Part shown: positions 11,401 to 64,000 of the stretch, piece after piece | Layout of the letters: every line of letters begins with the position of its first letter | Numbering within the stretch: the first letter of the stretch is position 1 | The notes under the pieces: generated by a model | Seen by the model: only the letters and a program-made list of their open reading frames with translations | Databases searched by the model: none | Told to the model about the DNA's origin: nothing | Made by a program: the position numbers and the translations under genes | DNA from: a virus | Direction: 5' to 3' (one strand) | IMG/VR virus record: IMGVR_UViG_3300022821_000013 | Span: 29,251 to 93,250 of that record | DNA length: 64,000 nucleotides

Positions 11401-14148
11401 TTAATAAAAATCATTACAATTTACATTATCAGTTGGTAATCTCCAATTAGCCGTATCATATATAGCTGATAGCTTATTACTTAACTCACTATCGTATATC
11501 TTCTCTATATTAATATATGTTTTTATAAACTCCATAATCTTAGGGTATGGTGTCTCCATAGGATAACCAATAATACTAAGGTTAAATGGATTATGTTTTA
11601 AATATACATATTTAATCTTATCACCTTGTTTTATAGCTTGATACTTAAAATCAGCATCGAAGAACTTCAATAATCTATTATACCCCAAAGCAGCCTTAAC
11701 TGGTGCAGTAGCACCTTTTTGAAACACATATATAGTTTTGTCCAACTCTGGATCATCATATTGATCTAACGTCTTAACAGATGATATTTTCGATATATAT
11801 TCTAGATCATCAGCAGTTATAGAGTTCATCAAATCAATTATTAGTTTATCACATTTAGGTTTATCATTTTCAATTAACATTATATTCAATAACGTAGATA
11901 AATGGTCTTGGAATTTAACTGGAAATGAAGATCTAACAACTTCAATACCTTTAAAGTCAATTGGATTGGCTAAATCACGTTTTCCCTCACTATCAACTAC
12001 ATATTGTGCATATCTCTTCTTACCTAACCATAAACCACGTCTAGTTATTTTCTCACGGTTAAACTTCAATCTATTATTATTAGAATGTAATGCTGATTTT
12101 GAGAATATCTCTAATGAATCATTTATAGAATTACAATAATCTTCTGCTATATCTGATAATTTATCTAAGTCTTCTTCTTTGTATTCTGATGGGTGAAATG
12201 GTAGATAACTTGAATCGGTATCATTATAGATAATAACATCATCAAATGGTAAGTCGTGTTTTACAGAGTATAGTTTGTTGAATACATACGATGCATATTT
12301 AATAATATCTCTACCAGTAGATGTTACTGCACTTGCATTCTCCAAGTCATAAAATCTAAATGTTTCTAATCCTAACACACCATATATAGAGTTTAATAGG
12401 ATTTTTTGTACTAATTGTAATTTATCATAATATCGTTCCATATCATAATCACCGTCTTTTCTACAAGACTTCATCTTATCTTTATAATCTAAACGTTTAT
12501 CAAACCAATCAGATAATATTTCTGGTATTAGACCTATTTTATCAGTAGAATACATCATACCATTAGAAGCTATAGTATATTTATTTTCTAATATAAACTC
12601 TATAAATTCATCTTTAGTAACTTCAAATACTTCTTTATTTAGATTTTCAAGTCTAAGTATAGTATCATCATTTATATAACCAAAGTCATAATTAATCTTA
12701 TCAAAATCAACATCACCATCAACAAAGCGTGATATATACTTCATCAGATTGACTTCTTCCCAATTCAATATCTTACCTGCTTTAGTTTCAGGAGATATAT
12801 TCAACGTTATAATGATAGATGGGTATAATGACTGTAAATCTATAGAGAATAACCATTCATATATATTAGTCTCTGGTAATCTAACGTATGCACCCTCAAA
12901 TGCTAATTTTATTTCTACGTTCTCTTTGAATGGTTTGGTTATATGTTTATTTAGATAAAATACACCATCTTCATAGTTATGATATTCATATACATCTGCT
13001 TTCTTAACTCTAAATACCTTTAATAAGCCATTAGTTGGTATTCTATGTCTTACAGCATCACAATCTACATGTAACTCATTAAGTCCTATTGTATGAGCTT
13101 TATTAGATGTTATATTCATACGTGGTTTCTTATTAGGTGCTATTATGGATTTTCTATCCATATAACTCATAATAGCACCTTCGATAACAGATGATGAATG
13201 TTTGAATTGTTGATATGGTATATGTGATATATGACATATTCTACGTGTCAACTCCACAAAGTCCAACTTAGCATCTAACTCTTTTATTAACTTAACATCG
13301 ACTAAGTTATACTCTATGAATTTTTCAATGTCTTCTCTGAATAACGTATCTAAACTACCCTCATAATCTATCTTACCATGACCTAATTCATGTTTAGATA
13401 CATAGTCTAGTTTATAACTTGGTAACTCTGAATAGTTATAGTTCTTATATACAATCATATAGTCTAATGACGCTAAACCTGCTATATCAACATACTTATT
13501 TCTTTCGCTATATTTAACTATACCTATAGGACTTAATTTCTTTACCCAATTATACCCTAATATATTTTTAATTCTAAAATATAGGTATCTAATATCAAAG
13601 TTATCACTGTTCCAACCTAATATTATATGTGGGCTTATTTCAGACATTTTATTTATAAACGCCTTTAATAGATTAACATCATTATTATAAGATGTAACAA
13701 TTACATTAGCTTCTTTATCATACGAATGTTTATGTTCTGACACTACAAATACATAATATATATCTGATGTCTGGTCGTACAACGCAATTGACGTTATATA
13801 ATTATTGGCTTCTTCCGTTATCAACTGACCAGATACCATTTCAACCTCTATATCGACAATAACTGTCTTTATATTAGTTGATACATCATCACTAAAATTA
13901 TACAATTTAATTAATTGGTCTATATCAGGTGATAGATCCACTTGTAGATAATCATCCGAATTTCCATTGTAAGTTTTGGATGTTACAACTGGATGATCAC
14001 TAAACAGATATTTCAATTCTGTTTCTTCTTTTGGATCCTTAGCTAATCTAAAAAATTCGGAATCACGTTCAAAAGATACATATCCTTCAGTGTCATCCCA
14101 TAAATGATATAGATTTTCCTTTCTATCAAAGTATATAGATTGGTACAT
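11401..14148 (-). CDS. Family B DNA polymerase (T4 gp43-like)
   Basis: Exo DIEVE, GWNSDNFD, YNLVD; polymerase DLQSLYPSII, KILLNSIYG, YNDTDS, KKRY. Confidence 0.97.
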   Translation of the reverse strand: MYQSIYFDRKENLYHLWDDTEGYVSFERDSEFFRLAKDPKEETELKYLFSDHPVVTSKTYNGNSDDYLQVDLSPDIDQLIKLYNFSDDVSTNIKTVIVDIEVEMVSGQLITEEANNYITSIALYDQTSDIYYVFVVSEHKHSYDKEANVIVTSYNNDVNLLKAFINKMSEISPHIILGWNSDNFDIRYLYFRIKNILGYNWVKKLSPIGIVKYSERNKYVDIAGLASLDYMIVYKNYNYSELPSYKLDYVSKHELGHGKIDYEGSLDTLFREDIEKFIEYNLVDVKLIKELDAKLDFVELTRRICHISHIPYQQFKHSSSVIEGAIMSYMDRKSIIAPNKKPRMNITSNKAHTIGLNELHVDCDAVRHRIPTNGLLKVFRVKKADVYEYHNYEDGVFYLNKHITKPFKENVEIKLAFEGAYVRLPETNIYEWLFSIDLQSLYPSIIITLNISPETKAGKILNWEEVNLMKYISRFVDGDVDFDKINYDFGYINDDTILRLENLNKEVFEVTKDEFIEFILENKYTIASNGMMYSTDKIGLIPEILSDWFDKRLDYKDKMKSCRKDGDYDMERYYDKLQLVQKILLNSIYGVLGLETFRFYDLENASAVTSTGRDIIKYASYVFNKLYSVKHDLPFDDVIIYNDTDSSYLPFHPSEYKEEDLDKLSDIAEDYCNSINDSLEIFSKSALHSNNNRLKFNREKITRRGLWLGKKRYAQYVVDSEGKRDLANPIDFKGIEVVRSSFPVKFQDHLSTLLNIMLIENDKPKCDKLIIDLMNSITADDLEYISKISSVKTLDQYDDPELDKTIYVFQKGATAPVKAALGYNRLLKFFDADFKYQAIKQGDKIKYVYLKHNPFNLSIIGYPMETPYPKIMEFIKTYINIEKIYDSELSNKLSAIYDTANWRLPTDNVNCNDFY

Positions 14149-28885: not shown

Positions 28886-29484
28886 TATCTATAAAATTGT
28901 AATAAATTACTTAAATATGATGTTATACCATTAAAATCAAGTTCTGTATTAATTAATACACGTTTATTGGTTTCATACACACCACTTTCCAATCTAACAC
29001 CATTAGAATTAAATTTATCATGTTTTATACCTGATATTTTCCATTTCAATGTAGTTAATTTATGAATTACACTATAAAAATTACTTGTATTATTATTCAA
29101 TATATTATAATCAGTTTCAGATATTTCAGATATTGGTGCTGATATATCGTTTCTGCGTTTCATAAAATATCTATTAATATATCCAATATTATAATCATCG
29201 TCATCTGGAAATGGTGAATATGGACTAATAGATATATTATCGTAATATGAATCAAACATACCATTACTAGCATTTCTATATTCAATTATAGAATTATCCA
29301 ATTGTGATAATAATTTAACGGATCTACCACCTATGTATGATGGTAATGAATATAGCTCACCAGTTACATATCTATGATACCAACCAATATATTCTTCGGT
29401 TGATGAATCATAAATTAATTCACCGCCTCTGGTATAAAGACCTTTTTCAATTTCATTGTCCGAGTAGGATAATCTGTTTCTCAT
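28885..29484 (-). CDS. Hypothetical protein
   Basis: 199-aa ORF (LYTRGGE...YIGWYH...GYINRYF...LKWKISG). Confidence 0.7.
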   Translation of the reverse strand: MRNRLSYSDNEIEKGLYTRGGELIYDSSTEEYIGWYHRYVTGELYSLPSYIGGRSVKLLSQLDNSIIEYRNASNGMFDSYYDNISISPYSPFPDDDDYNIGYINRYFMKRRNDISAPISEISETDYNILNNNTSNFYSVIHKLTTLKWKISGIKHDKFNSNGVRLESGVYETNKRVLINTELDFNGITSYLSNLLQFYR

Positions 29485-57403: not shown

Positions 57404-59056
57404 TTAATTTTCTGTATTGGTTTTGTTTTTGATATACGACGTGTTAGCTAGTTTAGGCTTTTTCATTAACTCTTTATTGCCAAGTGTATCATACGCAAAA
57501 TTGTTATCATGTGATCCATATTTGTCTCCTTCGGGTGGTCTCCCAACTGGACTTGATTGTGCTTCACCACCAGTCATAGCAACACCAGTTGATACAGGAT
57601 CATTACCTTCCATCTCAATTTGTTTATATCTAAACTGTTGTTTCTTATCTTCTATCATTTGATTACGTGATATTTCTATCTCTTCATCATTCATATTAAA
57701 TATATTTTTATATATATATTCTGATGGAATCATGTCCAACTCTCTCATGTGTTTAGATACATTAACTTTTGATTGCATAAGAGTTAACATCTCTTGTTGG
57801 TATATAAGTGATGGATTGTTTAATTTTATATCAAACTCTATCAACTCATTTAATTCAAATCCCTGTGCAAATAGATGTGTATATGCTATTTCTACTAATG
57901 TAGCTTCAATTTGACGTTGTATTCTTTCTATAGTTCTTGCAAATCTAACATCTTGTGCTGCTAAACTTGACCTACCAGAACTTTCATCTTCAAATCCCAA
58001 ATATGATTTTGGAACCATTAGCCCAGCGAATAGTCTATTTTTTAAATAATCTATTTCATCAATCATATTATTATTATCTAAACCATCTAATGTTTCTATA
58101 CCAGAACCATCATCTTTACCACGTCTAGGAATAAAATAATCTTCGTTTAAATTTTGTATGTTATAACGTAAATTATATTCTCCAGTATTTTGATCATAGA
58201 TTGGAGTTTGTTTCATCTCAGCAGTGATACGTTCTATATAAGCATCTACAGCTGATGGTTCTATCCCAGCAACATCTATATTAAATACTCTTTTGTGTGG
58301 AGCACGTGTTATTCTATGAATCATCATTGCATCTTCCATCAATGATATTTGTTTCCAATGTTTTCTAACACCCTCTATTATAGACTTACCATAAGGTAGA
58401 AAGTTAGAATCTGATGTTAATCTAAAATGTGCTAATTCCCACTTCTCATATCTTTCTTTATTGAAATAATCACCGTATTCACCATAATCATCCTTAATCT
58501 TAAAGAATGTTGTTATTCTACCATAATCATCTGCATGCTCAACTCTCTCAACAATATAAGGTGATACTGACATTGCATTAACAACACCATAATCTTGCCT
58601 AACATCTAATAAAACTGGATAATCACCGTACTTACATGTTTCTCTAACCCAATTCCATAGGTTCATCTCTATATTCAACACATCATAAAATAAGTTGTCT
58701 AATATAGCCTTTAAATCTGCATTATCAGTTTTAACTACTAACATATCACCACGTTCATTGACTAGTGTAGCTTCATCAGCATACACCTTTAACGCAGCAG
58801 ATATGATAGAATCTTTATCCATCATCTCGTAATCTTTGAATAAATCCATACGTTCTTGATTGAAATTATATGAATTATTTTCATAATCCACCAAACTTCT
58901 ACGCATAACTAATCTTTTGTATCTATCAGATGTATAGGGTGAACCTGCACTCTGTATTACATTAGGATCAATTATTTTTAATTTATTCTTATCAATTCTC
59001 TGTACTATTACGTTTCCAGAGAATAGTTTATTTAACCTATCTTTTAAACTTGCCAT
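57404..59056 (-). CDS. Portal protein (T4 gp20-like)
   Basis: YEMMD...I..AL...ADE, HFRL, PYG.S, MEDAMMIHRITRAP..RVF.ID, EDYFIP.R, IETL.G, DVRFAR.I.RIQ. Confidence 0.95.
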   Translation of the reverse strand: MASLKDRLNKLFSGNVIVQRIDKNKLKIIDPNVIQSAGSPYTSDRYKRLVMRRSLVDYENNSYNFNQERMDLFKDYEMMDKDSIISAALKVYADEATLVNERGDMLVVKTDNADLKAILDNLFYDVLNIEMNLWNWVRETCKYGDYPVLLDVRQDYGVVNAMSVSPYIVERVEHADDYGRITTFFKIKDDYGEYGDYFNKERYEKWELAHFRLTSDSNFLPYGKSIIEGVRKHWKQISLMEDAMMIHRITRAPHKRVFNIDVAGIEPSAVDAYIERITAEMKQTPIYDQNTGEYNLRYNIQNLNEDYFIPRRGKDDGSGIETLDGLDNNNMIDEIDYLKNRLFAGLMVPKSYLGFEDESSGRSSLAAQDVRFARTIERIQRQIEATLVEIAYTHLFAQGFELNELIEFDIKLNNPSLIYQQEMLTLMQSKVNVSKHMRELDMIPSEYIYKNIFNMNDEEIEISRNQMIEDKKQQFRYKQIEMEGNDPVSTGVAMTGGEAQSSPVGRPPEGDKYGSHDNNFAYDTLGNKELMKKPKLANTSYIKNKTNTEN

Positions 59057-59081
59057 TGTATATAAATATAATTGAATTTTT

Positions 59082-60674
59082 CTATAATAGTGATCTTAAA
59101 TCAAATGAATCCCCATTACCAACTTTCATTTGCCAAGGATCTTCATTTTTAAATTGATGTTCGTTTTTAACTCGTTTGATGTTTCGTAGCATAGACATCT
59201 TAATATTACTACCTGCACCTCTAACTCTAACTGCAAAATCTCTAGTATATAGTCCTATTGCCATAGCAATAACTAAGTCATCATTATACCCTTTTGCTGC
59301 TTGTGTTTTTCTACCATCCCATATAAACGAATACATTTCATTTATAAGTCTAAGTGAATTTATTTTTGGTCGTGATGTATATACACCATTATGATCCATT
59401 TCTCTAAAATATAATGCTAATTTATCAATTATTAATTCACGTGTTACGTGTGACATAGTAAATCCAGGTGTCATACCATCTTTATTATATCTATAATCGT
59501 ATTTATAAGCATTAGAGCTATCATCAAGAACATTAATAGCTGATTTTGAATAATATATATTGTCATAACCAATATCAATAACATCCTGTATTACAGCCCA
59601 ACCAATACTATTATTCTCAACTACCAACATAGCATTATTATATTCTCTAGCTATAGATACAACTCTATTAGCGAATAACTTAGTATCAACCTGACCTTTG
59701 TATTCAGCCACTTGTTTTAATTCATTAACTTCTAATACTTGTACAGTTGAATAATCCGAACCGTTTCCACGTGCAACATCGACAGCAACTACATAATCAT
59801 GTTTGTTTGATGCCTCTTCCCATATCCAAAAATCATTGTTATAACGAGTTTCGATTGGATCATTACATAATTTTTTGTATTCTTCTAATATCCTATGCTC
59901 TATCAATGAGTTACCTGACGAAGCGAAATCGCAATCATATTCCTGTGCGGCCTGTTTTTCACCTAACTCTATAGTTTGTCTATCTCTGAATGCTTGGTCT
60001 TGATCTGGATGTAAGTACCAAGGTAATTTTATAAAATTAAATCCATTAACACCTGCTTCTGCATTAGCCCACATATTATGAAAGAAATTTGCAGTTCCGT
60101 TTGGAGTTGATAAAAGTATAGTCGAACCACCTCGTGATAGGGTTGCTTGTGCTGATGTCCAAATCTCCGAAATATCATTAATAAACGCAATTTCATCAAT
60201 TATTAATAGACTTAGAGCCTCTGACCTACCTGCATTCGGAGATGAACCAACTGCCTTTATTCTAGATCCATTCTTTAATACTAATGAAGTTTTATTATCT
60301 TCTTTTCTCGGTACCATAGACCTAAGAAATGTAGGTAGATTTTCATACATCAACTTAACTTTTCTAATTAAGTTTATAGCTGTCTTCTCATCAATTGCAA
60401 TTACAAGTATATTCCTATTCTGCTCAAATATCATCATATGAACACATCGCATAGCAGTTAGAGTAGATATTCCCATCTGTCTAGCTTTAAGTATTATGTT
60501 TCTATCATGTTCCATAATAGATAATAATGCTTTCTCTTGAAATTCATACAGTTCAAATGGAACAACACCTTTCATCGGATGTTCTACTTTACAATACTTT
60601 TTAGCAAAATAAACTATATCTTGCTTACACTTTAGTAATTCTGGTTTTAAACTTTCTAATATTTTCTTATTCAT
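59082..60674 (-). CDS. Terminase large subunit (T4 gp17-like)
   Basis: LYEFQ, KARQMGIST, LIIDEIAF, STPNG, QEYDC.F, VDVARG...DYS, VENN, NDDLVIA. Confidence 0.96.
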   Translation of the reverse strand: MNKKILESLKPELLKCKQDIVYFAKKYCKVEHPMKGVVPFELYEFQEKALLSIMEHDRNIILKARQMGISTLTAMRCVHMMIFEQNRNILVIAIDEKTAINLIRKVKLMYENLPTFLRSMVPRKEDNKTSLVLKNGSRIKAVGSSPNAGRSEALSLLIIDEIAFINDISEIWTSAQATLSRGGSTILLSTPNGTANFFHNMWANAEAGVNGFNFIKLPWYLHPDQDQAFRDRQTIELGEKQAAQEYDCDFASSGNSLIEHRILEEYKKLCNDPIETRYNNDFWIWEEASNKHDYVVAVDVARGNGSDYSTVQVLEVNELKQVAEYKGQVDTKLFANRVVSIAREYNNAMLVVENNSIGWAVIQDVIDIGYDNIYYSKSAINVLDDSSNAYKYDYRYNKDGMTPGFTMSHVTRELIIDKLALYFREMDHNGVYTSRPKINSLRLINEMYSFIWDGRKTQAAKGYNDDLVIAMAIGLYTRDFAVRVRGAGSNIKMSMLRNIKRVKNEHQFKNEDPWQMKVGNGDSFDLRSLL

Positions 60675-60678
60675 AATC

Positions 60679-61074
60679 TTATAACATTATTAATATACCT
60701 AAAATCAACCCAGTTCCTAACCATAGTTCTTTTCTATCATACCATTTAGGTTGTAACTCTTCTATTCTTATCTTCTGTAGATTTATTATATCTTGATTTA
60801 ACTTCTGTGATTTATCATATTCAGTTAATAAAAATTGATGTTCTTTTATAGTTGACTTATATAGTTCTATTTGTGACATCCTATTATGTATAATACTATC
60901 TTTATTATCAGATATATCGGTTAATATTTCTATCTTCTTCTGTAACTCATATATCTTAAATCCATATTTATACAAGTTCTCTCTTGGTAAACAAGTATCA
61001 GATTTCATTATATCAACTTGCGAATATAAACTGTATGTTGATAATATGAATATTAATATTATTATTCTACTCAT
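60679..61074 (-). CDS. Spanin-like protein: signal peptide, coiled coil, C-terminal TM helix
   Basis: MSRIIILIFILSTYSLYS|Q...PKWYDRKELWLGTGLILGILIML; overlaps the upstream TM/coiled-coil gene. Confidence 0.45.
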   Translation of the reverse strand: MSRIIILIFILSTYSLYSQVDIMKSDTCLPRENLYKYGFKIYELQKKIEILTDISDNKDSIIHNRMSQIELYKSTIKEHQFLLTEYDKSQKLNQDIINLQKIRIEELQPKWYDRKELWLGTGLILGILIML

Positions 61075-61396
61075 TATCTATATTCCTAAGAATTGCTATT
61101 GATTCGTCATATGTTATTTTTTCTTGTTCTCTTATAGCTGAAAATGTGGCTATTAACTCTTGTTCTCTGGTATCTAACTCAGATAGTTTAATGTCTAATT
61201 CTTTTATGTTTCTATCTGAAACTTCTATATTATGTTTTAGTTCTTCTTTTCTACTTTCTATAAATTTAGATTCTGAACTTTTAGTATCTAACTTATTTTT
61301 ATTATCTTCTAATTTAGATTCTCTATTCTTTTTATCATAAACAAAAAATCCAATTATACCCAAAACAACAATAATTATATAATTTATAATTTCCAT
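61067..61396 (-). CDS. i-spanin-like protein: N-terminal TM + coiled coil
   Basis: IINYIIIVVLGIIGFFVY followed by a charged heptad region. Confidence 0.5.
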   Translation of the reverse strand: MEIINYIIIVVLGIIGFFVYDKKNRESKLEDNKNKLDTKSSESKFIESRKEELKHNIEVSDRNIKELDIKLSELDTREQELIATFSAIREQEKITYDESIAILRNIDNE

Positions 61397-61412
61397 AATA
61401 ACCTTAAATTTA

Positions 61413-61964
61413 TTAAAAAATACCTACCCATGGTATTGGTGGTGATGGTATTGGTCCAGTTGGAGAAGGAACCAAACCATTATAAACACCATTTATAGTC
61501 GTTGTATGCGTTCTTAACGCTAATATCATACTTTGTATGGTAATATTGGTTGTCTTACCACTAAACGCCATTAATGATGCTTTAAGTGCAACTTCCAATG
61601 AATTTATATCACCTGGAAATACAACTACACATGGAGTTGGTATTGGCATAGGTAATATAGTTGGTGGGTGAGGTGGTAATGGTGAAAATTGTGATCCAGC
61701 CCAAAACCCTACAAACCCACTAGCTACCAATTTCATATTTAACTTTGATGTGGCTCTAGCTAATAAAAATGCACTTTCTAAATTAGATTGTAATATAGCT
61801 TTGTTATAAGTTAATAAACTATTTTGTAACATTGTAGTTGCAGATAGCATTCCTATTTCATATGCATCTGCTATTGATTTAGCTGCGTCTCTTTCATTAG
61901 ATGGTCTTTTTTTTGTAAATATAATATCTAATTGAGTTTCTATCAACTTCCAATTTATAGCCAT
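61413..61964 (-). CDS. Hypothetical Pro-rich protein
   Basis: 183 aa, PLPPHPP, ends PSPTGPIPSPPIPWVGIF. Confidence 0.65.
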   Translation of the reverse strand: MAINWKLIETQLDIIFTKKRPSNERDAAKSIADAYEIGMLSATTMLQNSLLTYNKAILQSNLESAFLLARATSKLNMKLVASGFVGFWAGSQFSPLPPHPPTILPMPIPTPCVVVFPGDINSLEVALKASLMAFSGKTTNITIQSMILALRTHTTTINGVYNGLVPSPTGPIPSPPIPWVGIF

Positions 61965-61970
61965 TAAACC

Positions 61971-62492
61971 TTAATTTTTAAATTCTTTGATTACATATGA
62001 TATTATACCAGCTATAGCAGTTAACCCAAATACTATCATTTGCCAATTAGTTCTAGCCCATTTAAATACATCAATACTATCAGTAACTGTACTTATAGAC
62101 AATATTGGTGGGTTTAAATTTATCAGTTCGGTTACTTGTGCTAAATAACATATAAATTCACCATCTGAACTTCTAACTGGTGATACATTCAATAAAACCC
62201 AAACTATAACTCCAGTCTTAGTTATATAACGTTTCTTCATTCTATAAGATGGAACTTCACCATCATATATACGCTTGGTCATCTCAACATCAGAATCTAC
62301 ATCATCTGGGTGAGTTATTGATTGGAATGTTTTTAATTGTATTTCTGCTAGATTATATTCAATTACATTCAAATATATATCATTTGCATGTAGAATTAAA
62401 CCATCTTTGGATACTAATAATATCCCAACTATAGAGTTGTTCCATATACTATCAAATATATTCTCTTTCATAGATGAATCTATAACAAACAA
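61971..62492 (-). CDS. PAS/PAC domain protein with C-terminal transmembrane helix
   Basis: F...W.NS.VGILLVS.DG.I..AN..Y...I.Y...E....F..ITHPDD...Y.M.KRY..K.G...WV.L.VSPVR..DG....Y.AQV.E; TM WQMIVFGLTAIAGIISYVI. Confidence 0.88.
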   Translation of the reverse strand: MFVIDSSMKENIFDSIWNNSIVGILLVSKDGLILHANDIYLNVIEYNLAEIQLKTFQSITHPDDVDSDVEMTKRIYDGEVPSYRMKKRYITKTGVIVWVLLNVSPVRSSDGEFICYLAQVTELINLNPPILSISTVTDSIDVFKWARTNWQMIVFGLTAIAGIISYVIKEFKN

Positions 62493-62677
62493 GATAATTC
62501 CTCTATAACAACCTTAAATTCTGATGATCTAACGTTTTCATGACAACCTTTAATATCAGTACCACTACATAATTTATCAAGTACATAGTCTCTTAATTGG
62601 CATTTTAATGTACACCAATTTTCATTTTTCATATCATTGATAGTACACACATCACATTTATTAATACCATGTCTCAT
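62480..62677 (-). CDS. Small Cys-rich protein
   Basis: 65 aa with 7 Cys (CxxC, CxxxC, CxxxxxxxC); overlaps the PAS gene start. Confidence 0.55.
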   Translation of the reverse strand: MRHGINKCDVCTINDMKNENWCTLKCQLRDYVLDKLCSGTDIKGCHENVRSSEFKVVIEELSCLL

Positions 62678-62689
62678 TCATATTACCAT

Positions 62690-62968
62690 TTATTTATCGT
62701 TAAGACTTTTTATAGTTGCCTTAACTCTTCTAGTGGCATCTGTAAACTTTTCAGTTGCAGTTACACCTAATCCAACAACAACCAAATATAGAAACCCATC
62801 GAATATATAATCTAATATAATCATACCAAACCATAAATTACATACCCAAGTAATTATCATCACTAAAAACCCTAAAAATGTTATTAGTCTTTTAGATGAT
62901 AAATCACCATCTACATCAGAGAATATCTCTCTTAAATTTTTTAATAATGCTTCTAAAAAATTCTTCAC
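62690..62968 (-). CDS. Holin-like two-TM membrane protein
   Basis: SSKR followed by two hydrophobic helices and a basic C-terminal tail. Confidence 0.55.
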   Translation of the reverse strand: MKNFLEALLKNLREIFSDVDGDLSSKRLITFLGFLVMIITWVCNLWFGMIILDYIFDGFLYLVVVGLGVTATEKFTDATRRVKATIKSLNDK

Positions 62969-63573
62969 ATAACTTCCTCATCTGTTATATTATATTGTTT
63001 CTTAACTTCTGATTTATATCTCTCGAAATCATCAATTATATCTTTCTTCACTTGTTCTGGATCTAATTTAGACCATTTATCTACTGTTCCATTCTCTCGT
63101 ATAGTGCTAAAGTTCTCTAATGCATTCACCATATCTTGTAATTCTGTTTGTTTATCTTTAAGATAAGATATAGCATTTTGCTTAACTTTATTTTTTTCGT
63201 ATTCTTCCCAATTACCATCAACTCTAATTTTAGTTTCTAGTTTGGCTACACATTTACCACACATACCCATTAAATTTCTGAATTTCTTGTCTAATCTGGT
63301 TTCATTGTATTGATTTACATTACATATTTCCATAGGACATGAATTATATTTATTTATCTCTGCTCGAATATCGTCTAACTTGGTTACTTTAGATTTATAT
63401 CCATTCATCTGCTCCCATTCAATTCCATCTAACCCTACCCAAGTTTCACCTATCTTACGTTGAATATCTTTTTCATTACTACCATAACCAATTTGAACAT
63501 TTACAAAATCACCACTGAGAACTCGTTTTACATCATTAAGATTATTAATTTGTACTCTTTCTTTAGACATCAA
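62965..63573 (-). CDS. Hypothetical protein
   Basis: RKIGETW...G.EWEQ..GY, CP..C, C.KC, helical C-terminus. Confidence 0.7.
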   Translation of the reverse strand: MMSKERVQINNLNDVKRVLSGDFVNVQIGYGSNEKDIQRKIGETWVGLDGIEWEQMNGYKSKVTKLDDIRAEINKYNSCPMEICNVNQYNETRLDKKFRNLMGMCGKCVAKLETKIRVDGNWEEYEKNKVKQNAISYLKDKQTELQDMVNALENFSTIRENGTVDKWSKLDPEQVKKDIIDDFERYKSEVKKQYNITDEEVM

Positions 63574-63635
63574 ACACCTTTAAATTTACAATTTTATAAA
63601 TATAAATATAAATTAAAATACTATCAATCTATTAT

Positions 63636-63971
63636 TTAACGTTCATGTTCTATATTGTTTAATGATTCTTCCATTTTATTCAGTTGGTTTGTTAATGTAG
63701 TGTTATTAGCAGCTGCACTTTCCAAATTCATCTTTAATTCTTTAACTTCTGATTTGTTGTATATTTCTTCTAAATGTAATATACGTTCTTTTATATCATT
63801 ATCTGCTAATATAAGTCTCTCATGACGTTTATCAGTTCTATCTTGTAAAGCTGTAAAATTCCAATATATAGTTGATAATGTAAATGTTGCTGACACTAAC
63901 ATTGAAGTCCACAATGCAATTGCACCGATGCTTATATTTATTTTTTTATTGAATTCTTCTATATTTGCCAC
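63636..63971 (-). CDS. Membrane protein: N-terminal TM + coiled coil
   Basis: ISIGAIALWTSMLVSATFTLSTIYW followed by heptads. Confidence 0.6.
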   Translation of the reverse strand: MANIEEFNKKINISIGAIALWTSMLVSATFTLSTIYWNFTALQDRTDKRHERLILADNDIKERILHLEEIYNKSEVKELKMNLESAAANNTTLTNQLNKMEESLNNIEHER

Positions 63972-64000
63972 TTTAAATCCAAATTTATGATTTGATTCTG

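Follow-up and report, generated by a model that had tools for sequence, protein, structure and literature searches.

The DNA analysed here, called the window throughout, is a stretch of 64,000 nucleotides from a virus (IMG/VR record IMGVR_UViG_3300022821_000013, positions 29,251 to 93,250). Directly upstream of its large terminase gene (TerL) lie eight tightly packed genes on the minus strand, in the order g66-g65-g64-g63-PAS-TM-g61-g60-g59-TerL. Neighbouring genes either share 4-13 nt or have 4-16 nt between them (Table 1). We were concerned mainly with the fifth gene, the product of which (PAS-TM) consists of a PAS domain and a transmembrane (TM) helix at the C-terminus. An initial annotation, made from the sequence without database searches, had described six of these genes, g64 to g59, as a consecutive and partly overlapping set of holin-like and spanin-like genes with a membrane-anchored PAS sensor in their midst, and had suggested that lysis might depend on a signal. 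All six were found on the minus strand at the positions listed in Table 1, and the two-TM protein (92 aa) and the 7-Cys miniprotein (65 aa) were as described.

A PAS protein with a C-terminal membrane helix upstream of TerL

The PAS domain of PAS-TM is complete. It scored 34.9 bits against the Pfam model PAS (PF00989, cut-off 22.6) and 34.7 bits against PAS_3 (PF08447, cut-off 25.6), was also above the cut-off of PAS_4 (PF08448, 24.6 bits) and fell just below that of PAS_9 (PF13426, 26.2 bits, cut-off 27). The score against TIGR00229 was 60.4 bits (cut-off 22.9), and the best NCBIfam match was the PAS unit of a diguanylate cyclase. Of the models named for verification in the initial annotation, PAS_3 and TIGR00229 thus recognised the domain and PAS_9 narrowly did not. 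In an AlphaFold2 model (pLDDT 85.8 overall and above 90 over residues 20-120) the PAS fold extended from residue 6 to 122, with strands at 23-27, 32-36, 83-90, 96-107 and 113-122. It was followed by a flexible linker of low confidence (123-141) and a continuous helix (142-172) composed of a juxtamembrane and a TM part, with 5-8 residues beyond the membrane. A Foldseek search matched the model to hundreds of solved PAS domains (E 7e-9), the best of which was NifL (2gj3; TM-score 0.86, rmsd 2.1 Å). The TTG start of the gene was backed by an N-terminal extension that is conserved in homologs.

Apart from the PAS domain the C-terminal helix was the only other element of the protein; in other words there is no output domain, as had been noted from the sequence. 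The sole TM helix occupies residues 150-172 of 173 and no signal peptide was found. Because the only TM helix is at the extreme C-terminus and a signal peptide is lacking, PAS-TM is predicted to be a tail-anchored membrane protein with its PAS domain in the cytoplasm. No LOV-type N-C-R-F-L motif was visible, and the top structural matches were a mixture of FAD-, FMN- and heme-containing and apo PAS domains with similar scores.

The window comprises the final 64 kb of a contig of 93,250 bp and ends where the contig ends. The contig is about 48% complete according to CheckV, has a G+C content of approximately 28% and carries nearly every gene on the minus strand. By its T4-type portal and TerL the phage is a distant T4-like myovirus, and it is probably virulent. 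The nearest annotated phages, judged by the portal, were Microcystis phage Mel-JY01 (46% identity) and the 'immuto' phages of Flavobacterium (42%). A Bacteroidota host fits, since signal peptides of the window proteins end in ..SQ. DNA of the window recurred in several metagenome runs from salt lakes. Contigs from three other runs of this kind spanned positions 59000-64000 in one piece with 4 base differences, these near-identical contigs possibly deriving from a single sampling campaign or from the source of the window DNA itself. Other assemblies reached about 1.5 kb past the window end, and a protein identical to PAS-TM was carried by a contig of 134.6 kb. In run X6 a low-depth joint skipped 61061-62352; it was disregarded, as one of its sides was only 20 letters long. 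No RNA run was listed among the sequencing runs containing window DNA, and neither a megablast search with the region nor a tblastn search with PAS-TM found a match among 50,697 phage records.

Most genes around PAS-TM form a conserved backbone: g65, g64, g61, g60 and g59 together with TerL were conserved in Mel-JY01, where an unrelated ORF of 125 aa takes the place of g63 and PAS-TM. As Mel-JY01 keeps the backbone but has this pair replaced, g63 and PAS-TM are an accessory two-gene insert within a conserved set of genes for late membrane proteins. In L006, a syntenic relative at about 50% amino acid identity, the whole block including the pair was present at 29-76% identity, and the synteny check proposed in the initial annotation thus found PAS-TM linked to the same neighbours. 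No terminator-like site was detected within the cluster or before TerL, matches to a sigma-70-like promoter were no commoner than in shuffled sequence, and all matches to TAnnTTTG inside the cluster lay within coding sequence.

Of the cluster genes only g65 was found in the immuto phages. In Mel-JY01, in the immuto phages and in an uncultured phage of 484 kb the homolog of g65 always preceded TerL or the portal gene by some kb, and g65 may belong to the core genes of this T4-like lineage.

Table 1. Genes of the cluster and its flank in the window, a repeated gene family elsewhere on the contig, and contigs with short PAS-TM genes
Feature	Location	Strand	Description
g66	63636..63971	-	111 aa; weak TM segment and coiled coil; last complete gene before the contig end
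g65	62965..63573	-	202 aa; soluble; conserved 4-Cys zinc-ribbon-like motif and coiled coil; first conserved gene of the cluster backbone
g64	62690..62968	-	92 aa; two TM helices, amphipathic N-terminus, charged C-terminal tail
g63	62480..62677	-	65 aa; Cys-rich (7 Cys); last 13 nt shared with the start of PAS-TM
PAS-TM	61971..62492	-	173 aa; TTG start; PAS fold and C-terminal TM helix
g61	61413..61964	-	183 aa; soluble, Pro-rich; conserved C-terminal PIPW-G motif
g60	61067..61396	-	109 aa; N-terminal TM helix and coiled coil
g59	60679..61074	-	131 aa; signal peptide, coiled coil, PKWY motif, C-terminal hydrophobic helix; start overlaps g60 by 8 nt
TerL (large terminase)	59082..60674	-	Terminase_6N 1.4e-13, PHROG 2 1.4e-49; begins 4 nt downstream of the cluster
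T4-type portal (gp20 family)	57404..59056	-	Portal_T4 2.2e-66
Multi-copy family	L087:73-600, 1122-1559, 1556-1993, 2003-2512, 12620-13039; L088:11575-13675		Members of the repeated gene family
Short phage PAS-TM	L006		Syntenic relative
Short phage PAS-TM	L026, L092		33-35% GC
Short phage PAS-TM	L100, L101/L102, L103/L104, L105, L114		38-50% GC
Short phage PAS-TM	L004/L090, L039, L080, L089		57-63% GC

A phage family of tail-anchored PAS proteins

When PAS-TM was used to scan contigs of metagenomes and viruses, most of the proteins retrieved were long cellular sensors, which matched in the PAS part only, but phage contigs of very different composition also gave short proteins composed of a PAS domain and a C-terminal TM helix (Table 1). 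As members of the family we counted proteins of 160-220 aa with a PAS domain, a linker, a W/NW juxtamembrane motif and, at the C-terminus, a TM helix with many small residues, and alignments together with a comparison of the tails placed PAS-TM of the window among them. Three database proteins of the same length with 48-55% identity had kept the PAS-linker-TM layout and many invariant positions in the TM helix, and over the range of 26-55% identity length and architecture remained the same. The protein of L089 could be aligned with PAS-TM from end to end (35% identity, E 4e-38), including a common juxtamembrane motif W-x-K/R-x-Y/N-W and the sequence ...IIS-x-VI... at the end of the TM helix. 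The sequence of the TM tail was conserved among phages of 28-62% GC. Since the helix is conserved and rich in small residues, it may not act as a mere anchor, and its conservation suggests specific packing in the membrane.

In a maximum-likelihood tree based on the PAS part only (IQ-TREE, 71 rows) the 11 PAS-TM rows, which come from phages of 28-63% GC, formed one clade apart from 60 rows of cellular multi-domain proteins. The clade had 99/99 support and was present in 100% of the bootstrap trees, and none of 500 label shuffles was as clustered. Duplicates were left out of the tree, as were rows not spanning query residues 18-105, among them those of L026 and L080. The single phage clade implies that the family had one origin and moves among phages. 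A profile search with the family alignment returned 163,930 representatives at E <= 1e-3, the best 150 of which were all long cellular proteins with multiple PAS domains. We conclude with confidence that PAS-TM belongs to a monophyletic, phage-only family of tail-anchored PAS proteins expressed from late operons.

In all of the approximately 11 lineages the gene was located in late regions and usually at module boundaries. Two of these locations deserve special attention. In L089, a complete phage genome of 65.8 kb with terminal repeats (G002), a tail-fibre-like gene is followed by PAS-TM, the sole DUF5675 gene of the genome (Pfam 6.4e-26), a gene for an 86-aa protein with two TM helices and a gene for a coiled-coil (Rz-like) protein with an N-terminal TM helix. 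DUF5675 has been described as a C82-like candidate lysin domain (preprint, bioRxiv 10.64898/2026.04.11.717860). In L080, which is 95% complete (G003), PAS-TM is followed by a 55-aa lipoprotein with the sequence LTTGC and a 130-aa protein with two TM helices, and an Amidase_2 gene (1e-25) lies about 1.8 kb downstream. Other members had different surroundings. A PAS protein with two TM helices was encoded directly after a Phage-tail_3 protein in L004 and L090, PAS-TM preceded the terminase by a few genes in L100 and L114, followed the sheath and tube genes in L101, preceded a gp25-like baseplate gene in L105, stood beside a tail fibre in L103 and adjoined the head-maturation protease in L026.

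Neighbouring genes and the search for an endolysin

According to a scan for TM segments g64 has a pair of hydrophobic helices, and its C-terminal tail abounds in K, R, D and E; small size, at least one TM domain and a charged, hydrophilic C-terminal tail are features of holins. The score against Phage_holin_3_6 was 14.7 bits (E 0.033, cut-off 28.4), the best PHROG was 1322, annotated as 'membrane protein' (9.8e-5), no NCBIfam holin matched and the Atlas neighbours were all unnamed. Homologs of g64 were present in Mel-JY01 and Caulobacter phage Cr30 at 41-44% identity. The Cr30 homolog (gp206; L098:5983-6231, E 6.6e-18) also has two TM helices and a G-LSSKR motif. This suggests that g64 is a member of a conserved family of small membrane proteins of T4-like phages characterised by G-LSSKR, which is holin-like by topology only.

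g60 starts with a TM helix (residues 1-19) that is followed by a heptad-rich, charged helix, as expected for an i-spanin. Rz-like PHROGs gave marginal matches that were not significant, at E 0.0067 with g60 and at E 0.0047 with the 23% identical homolog from Mel-JY01, the PHROGs being the same in both cases. The signal peptide of g59 is of the Bacteroidota type and ends in ..LYSQ, with the nearest Cys 8 residues further on in the context S-D-T-C. No family in Pfam, PHROG or NCBIfam matched g59, and tblastn against the phage records found nothing. A 163-aa protein with hydrophobic helices at both the N- and the C-terminus, an end-anchored layout like that of g59, is encoded directly upstream of PAS-TM in L114 (L114:12807-13298).

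g61 occupies the place where a canonical lysis cassette has its endolysin. It had no match in Pfam, PHROG or NCBIfam. Its AlphaFold2 model (pLDDT 77) gave only uncharacterised phage proteins in BFVD and no match among solved structures (Foldseek best E 1.0, VIA best Z 4.8), so that g61, when considered as an endolysin, showed no recognisable lysin fold. The Atlas model resembled a non-catalytic domain within viral CHAP and Peptidase_M15_4 proteins of ~400-440 aa (TM-scores 0.67 and 0.54 by query), a similarity which hints that this fold may accompany cell-wall hydrolases.

g63 and PAS-TM overlap (Table 1), and the two genes are probably translationally coupled. Only 4 of the 7 Cys of g63 were conserved in the L006 ortholog (37% identity), and their spacing, C-x2-C-x10-C-x3-C, suggests that the protein may be a small zinc knuckle. 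Conservation of no more than these four weakens the redox or metal role that the initial annotation had suggested for g63. It had no family match in Pfam, PHROG or NCBIfam and was absent from Mel-JY01. Two unrelated phages likewise have, overlapping PAS-TM at its 3' end, a gene for a miniprotein of 66-76 aa with 4 Cys and a PRWTW end (L100:5524-5754 and L101:5536-5736). These two miniproteins are homologous to each other (E 5e-11), and were considered as relatives of g63 but proved not to be homologous to it. They possibly represent a recurrent partner of PAS-TM, in a pairing analogous to that with g63.

Five lysin families (Phage_lysozyme, Amidase_2, Peptidase_M15_4, DUF5675 and SLT) were searched for in the contig, in Mel-JY01 and in the immuto phages. 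Nothing was found except an M15_4 match below threshold in an open frame of 941 aa in immuto and an SLT domain in Mel-JY01. The latter belongs to a 175-aa protein, the N-terminus of which is hydrophobic and resembles a signal or SAR sequence; next comes a gene for a protein of 81 aa with a single TM helix (L097:3310-4086; Mel-JY01 150809-151585). Although annotated as hypothetical, this locus is a candidate endolysin locus of Mel-JY01.

The part of the contig outside the window (G000 bases 1-29400; L087:1-15000 and L088:1-14701) contained a large set of nucleotide-sugar and sialic-acid genes. It included GDP-mannose 4,6-dehydratase (8e-117), NeuB (1.5e-59), a cytidylyltransferase, epimerases, glycosyltransferases of the GT2, GT10 and GT11 families and a DegT aminotransferase. 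A NADAR domain (1e-50) and a Tad3-like inhibitor of type I Thoeris (8.8e-30) were encoded in the same region. In addition a multi-copy family of proteins of ~130-175 aa with 55-79% mutual identity occurred in two clusters of the contig (Table 1); its first member had no Pfam match.

Possible roles of PAS-TM

The likeliest role of PAS-TM, proposed here tentatively, lies in the regulation of a late event at the membrane. The PAS domain would serve as a cytoplasmic sensor or interaction module that is held at the inner membrane by the conserved C-terminal helix, and this helix is the only candidate for an output. A late-expressed membrane regulator of this kind might couple an intracellular signal, or the dimerisation state of the PAS domain, to the timing of membrane permeabilisation by helix-helix contacts with a holin-type partner or by contacts with the bilayer. 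PAS-TM would then behave as a sensor-bearing antiholin or as a co-factor of a holin. We put forward as a tentative but substantial possibility that some late event at the membrane is the target of PAS-TM, and the most plausible such event is the timing of permeabilisation by a holin. The analysis shows the architecture, the fold and the family of the protein, its accessory status, its position in a late operon and its adjacency to lysis genes in two other phages; an effect on lysis, a partner and a signal are inferred. The initial annotation had likewise proposed a sensor-controlled antiholin or holin, and the complete and conserved PAS-TM protein as well as its adjacency to lysis genes in G002 and G003 speak for that proposal. 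In the window the PAS-TM gene is flanked by the genes for the two-TM protein and for the coiled-coil protein with the N-terminal TM helix. Moreover, lysis cassettes usually reside either upstream of the terminase or downstream of the tail fibres; in lambda, for example, S-R-Rz precede Nu1/A.

Several observations weigh against a function in lysis. Recognisable lysis enzymes adjoin the family in only 2 of about 11 independent lineages, and in the rest it is next to structural or terminase genes. Synteny with lysis genes was thus kept by the full-length homologs of G002 and G003 but not in most lineages. The partners of different family members are unrelated in sequence, and neither the two-TM nor the coiled-coil protein of G002 was similar to g64 or g60. 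With regard to the window itself, the labels given to the neighbours in the initial annotation stood as far as the two-TM topology of g64 and the i-spanin-like topology of g60 are concerned, but none of the holin and spanin models of Pfam, PHROGs and NCBIfam gave a significant match to a neighbour. The Cr30 homolog of g64 is encoded between a gp51-like catalyst of hub assembly and a gp29-like tape-measure/hub gene. g59 has no lipobox and its Mel-JY01 homolog lacks Cys altogether; with a signal of the signal peptidase I type and without a lipobox, g59 fails to show the feature that defines o-spanins and u-spanins. Holin and spanin labels for these genes, derived as they are from topology only, are not established. 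The earlier statement that no endolysin is visible holds for the window and extends to the 93-kb contig (~48% complete), in which none was recognisable in Pfam scans of 73 mid-size ORFs (~100-472 aa) with the best 25 families considered per scan, where lysin matches above E ~3e-5 could be hidden. Mel-JY01 keeps the backbone without PAS-TM, and has its SLT gene and the small TM neighbour ~135 kb away. This distance does not decide the matter, because the lysis genes of T4-like phages are often scattered. Finally, no class of ligand or cofactor could be assigned to PAS-TM from sequence motifs and structural matches.

Some of these observations would be accounted for if the cluster upstream of TerL served morphogenesis or packaging at the inner membrane, with PAS-TM as an accessory modulator, a scaffold or an unrelated late moron. 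Prohead and hub assembly of T4 do have an inner-membrane step. The conservation of g65-g64-g61-g60-g59 leading into TerL in Mel-JY01, at a divergence like that of the portal, the company of the Cr30 homolog, the location of most family members inside structural modules and the lack of a recognisable lysin fold in g61 and of a recognisable endolysin on the contig all agree with such a function. However, two members of the family are embedded in credible lysis cassettes, the backbone does without PAS-TM in Mel-JY01, and no structural-protein family of Pfam or PHROG matched any member of the cluster. We regard this explanation as unlikely. Rather less probable still is exploitation of PAS-TM as a decoy in host takeover, which had also been considered in the initial annotation. 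A membrane-tethered PAS domain would form heterodimers with the PAS domains of membrane sensor kinases or cyclases of the host and block or bias their signalling. PAS domains commonly dimerise, the PAS part is of a very common cellular type and shares ~40% identity with PAS units in long sensors, and a protein with no output domain whose best NCBIfam match is the PAS unit of a diguanylate cyclase would be suited to this purpose. Yet the phage proteins are a separate clade that clusters with no cellular PAS group, even though phages of 28-63% GC must infect hosts from very different phyla, and this failure to track host PAS domains weakens the idea. In addition, conservation of the TM helix sequence would be needless for a mere tether, and a position in a late operon is a poor fit to early takeover.

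PAS-TM, with or without g63, might instead block the entry of superinfecting DNA or an abortive-infection system at the membrane. The accessory and swappable distribution at module junctions is typical of genes for exclusion or counter-defence, the membrane location would be appropriate and the contig has other counter-defence genes, including the Tad3-like one. Against this, PADLOC matched none of the cluster proteins and such a role would not explain why the family adjoins lysins in G002 and G003; we know of no exclusion protein that uses a PAS domain, and consider such a role improbable. There is finally the view that PAS-TM is a functionless fragment of a host sensor kinase, captured recently and in decay, which the initial annotation had listed as something to be checked. 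A single PAS unit without an output domain, whose closest cellular matches are long multi-PAS sensors, might indeed look like such a remnant. This view is effectively refuted, because the family is monophyletic and phage-borne: the layout has kept its length at 26-55% identity, linker and TM tail are conserved, the reading frame is intact in other samples and the flanks contain no remnants of a kinase.

To return to a regulator of permeabilisation, known systems offer partial parallels. Lysis inhibition in T4 depends on the holin T and the antiholins RI, which is periplasmic, and RIII, which is cytoplasmic, superinfection being sensed via protein contacts. The likeness is one of function: the context is T4-like, small accessory proteins tune, or in the case of PAS-TM would tune, the triggering of the holin in response to a signal, and RIII acts on the cytoplasmic side, where the PAS domain is predicted to be. 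There is, however, no relation in sequence or fold, a T-type holin was not found here, RI and RIII sense without a PAS domain, and PAS-TM differs in being tail-anchored. Homology to antiholins such as RI and RIII, lambda S107 or P1 LydB was not to be expected, because it is function that defines them. Vibriophage VP882 also encodes a PAS protein, VqmA, which is soluble and acts as a transcription factor: its output is DNA-binding, and it governs the switch between lysis and lysogeny via a small-molecule signal. VqmA thus ties a lysis decision to a small molecule, whereas PAS-TM lacks a DNA-binding domain, is anchored in the membrane and comes from a late operon in a T4-like phage that is probably virulent. 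Cellular PAS sensors such as NifL, Aer and the DOS type share the fold and match at the family level (TIGR00229), but they are coupled to kinase, GGDEF/EAL, HTH or MCP modules where PAS-TM has only its C-terminal helix, and they fall outside its clade. In cluster F1 mycobacteriophages a holin-like protein with two TM domains (LysF1a) and a protein with a single TM domain and a cytoplasmic domain (LysF1b) both shape the timing of lysis (PMC13056207). The window similarly has a two-TM protein encoded two genes upstream of a one-TM protein with a predicted cytoplasmic domain. Differences are that the TM domain of LysF1b is N-terminal with N-out/C-in orientation (PMC13056207) and that it has no PAS domain, while the TM helix of PAS-TM is C-terminal; the host is Gram-positive-like and there is no homology. 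Literature searches found no paper linking PAS domains to holins, antiholins, endolysins or lysis cassettes, none describing a tail-anchored phage PAS family and none on Mel-JY01. The tail-anchored PAS-TM proteins are an undescribed phage family for which a role in lysis timing is plausible but unproven.

The timing of lysis sets burst size and phage fitness, and the timers known so far appear to respond mainly to their own concentration, to the energisation of the membrane or, in T4, to superinfection. To find the commonest bacterial sensor fold joined to a conserved membrane helix at the head of a lysis cassette would point to late membrane control that depends on a ligand or on the state of the cell. 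As a still more tentative proposal, tail-anchored PAS proteins may be widespread, phage-only, sensor-coupled regulators of lysis, in which an intracellular cue, for example a metabolite, energy or the redox state, would gate or delay the triggering of the holin via the helix. If true, phages of many phyla would possess a signal-dependent lysis clock of a kind known from no studied phage. Even if the role of the family does not lie in lysis, the family is an output-less, tail-anchored PAS module that moves between unrelated phages, and it provides a compact test case for PAS signalling through a single TM helix.

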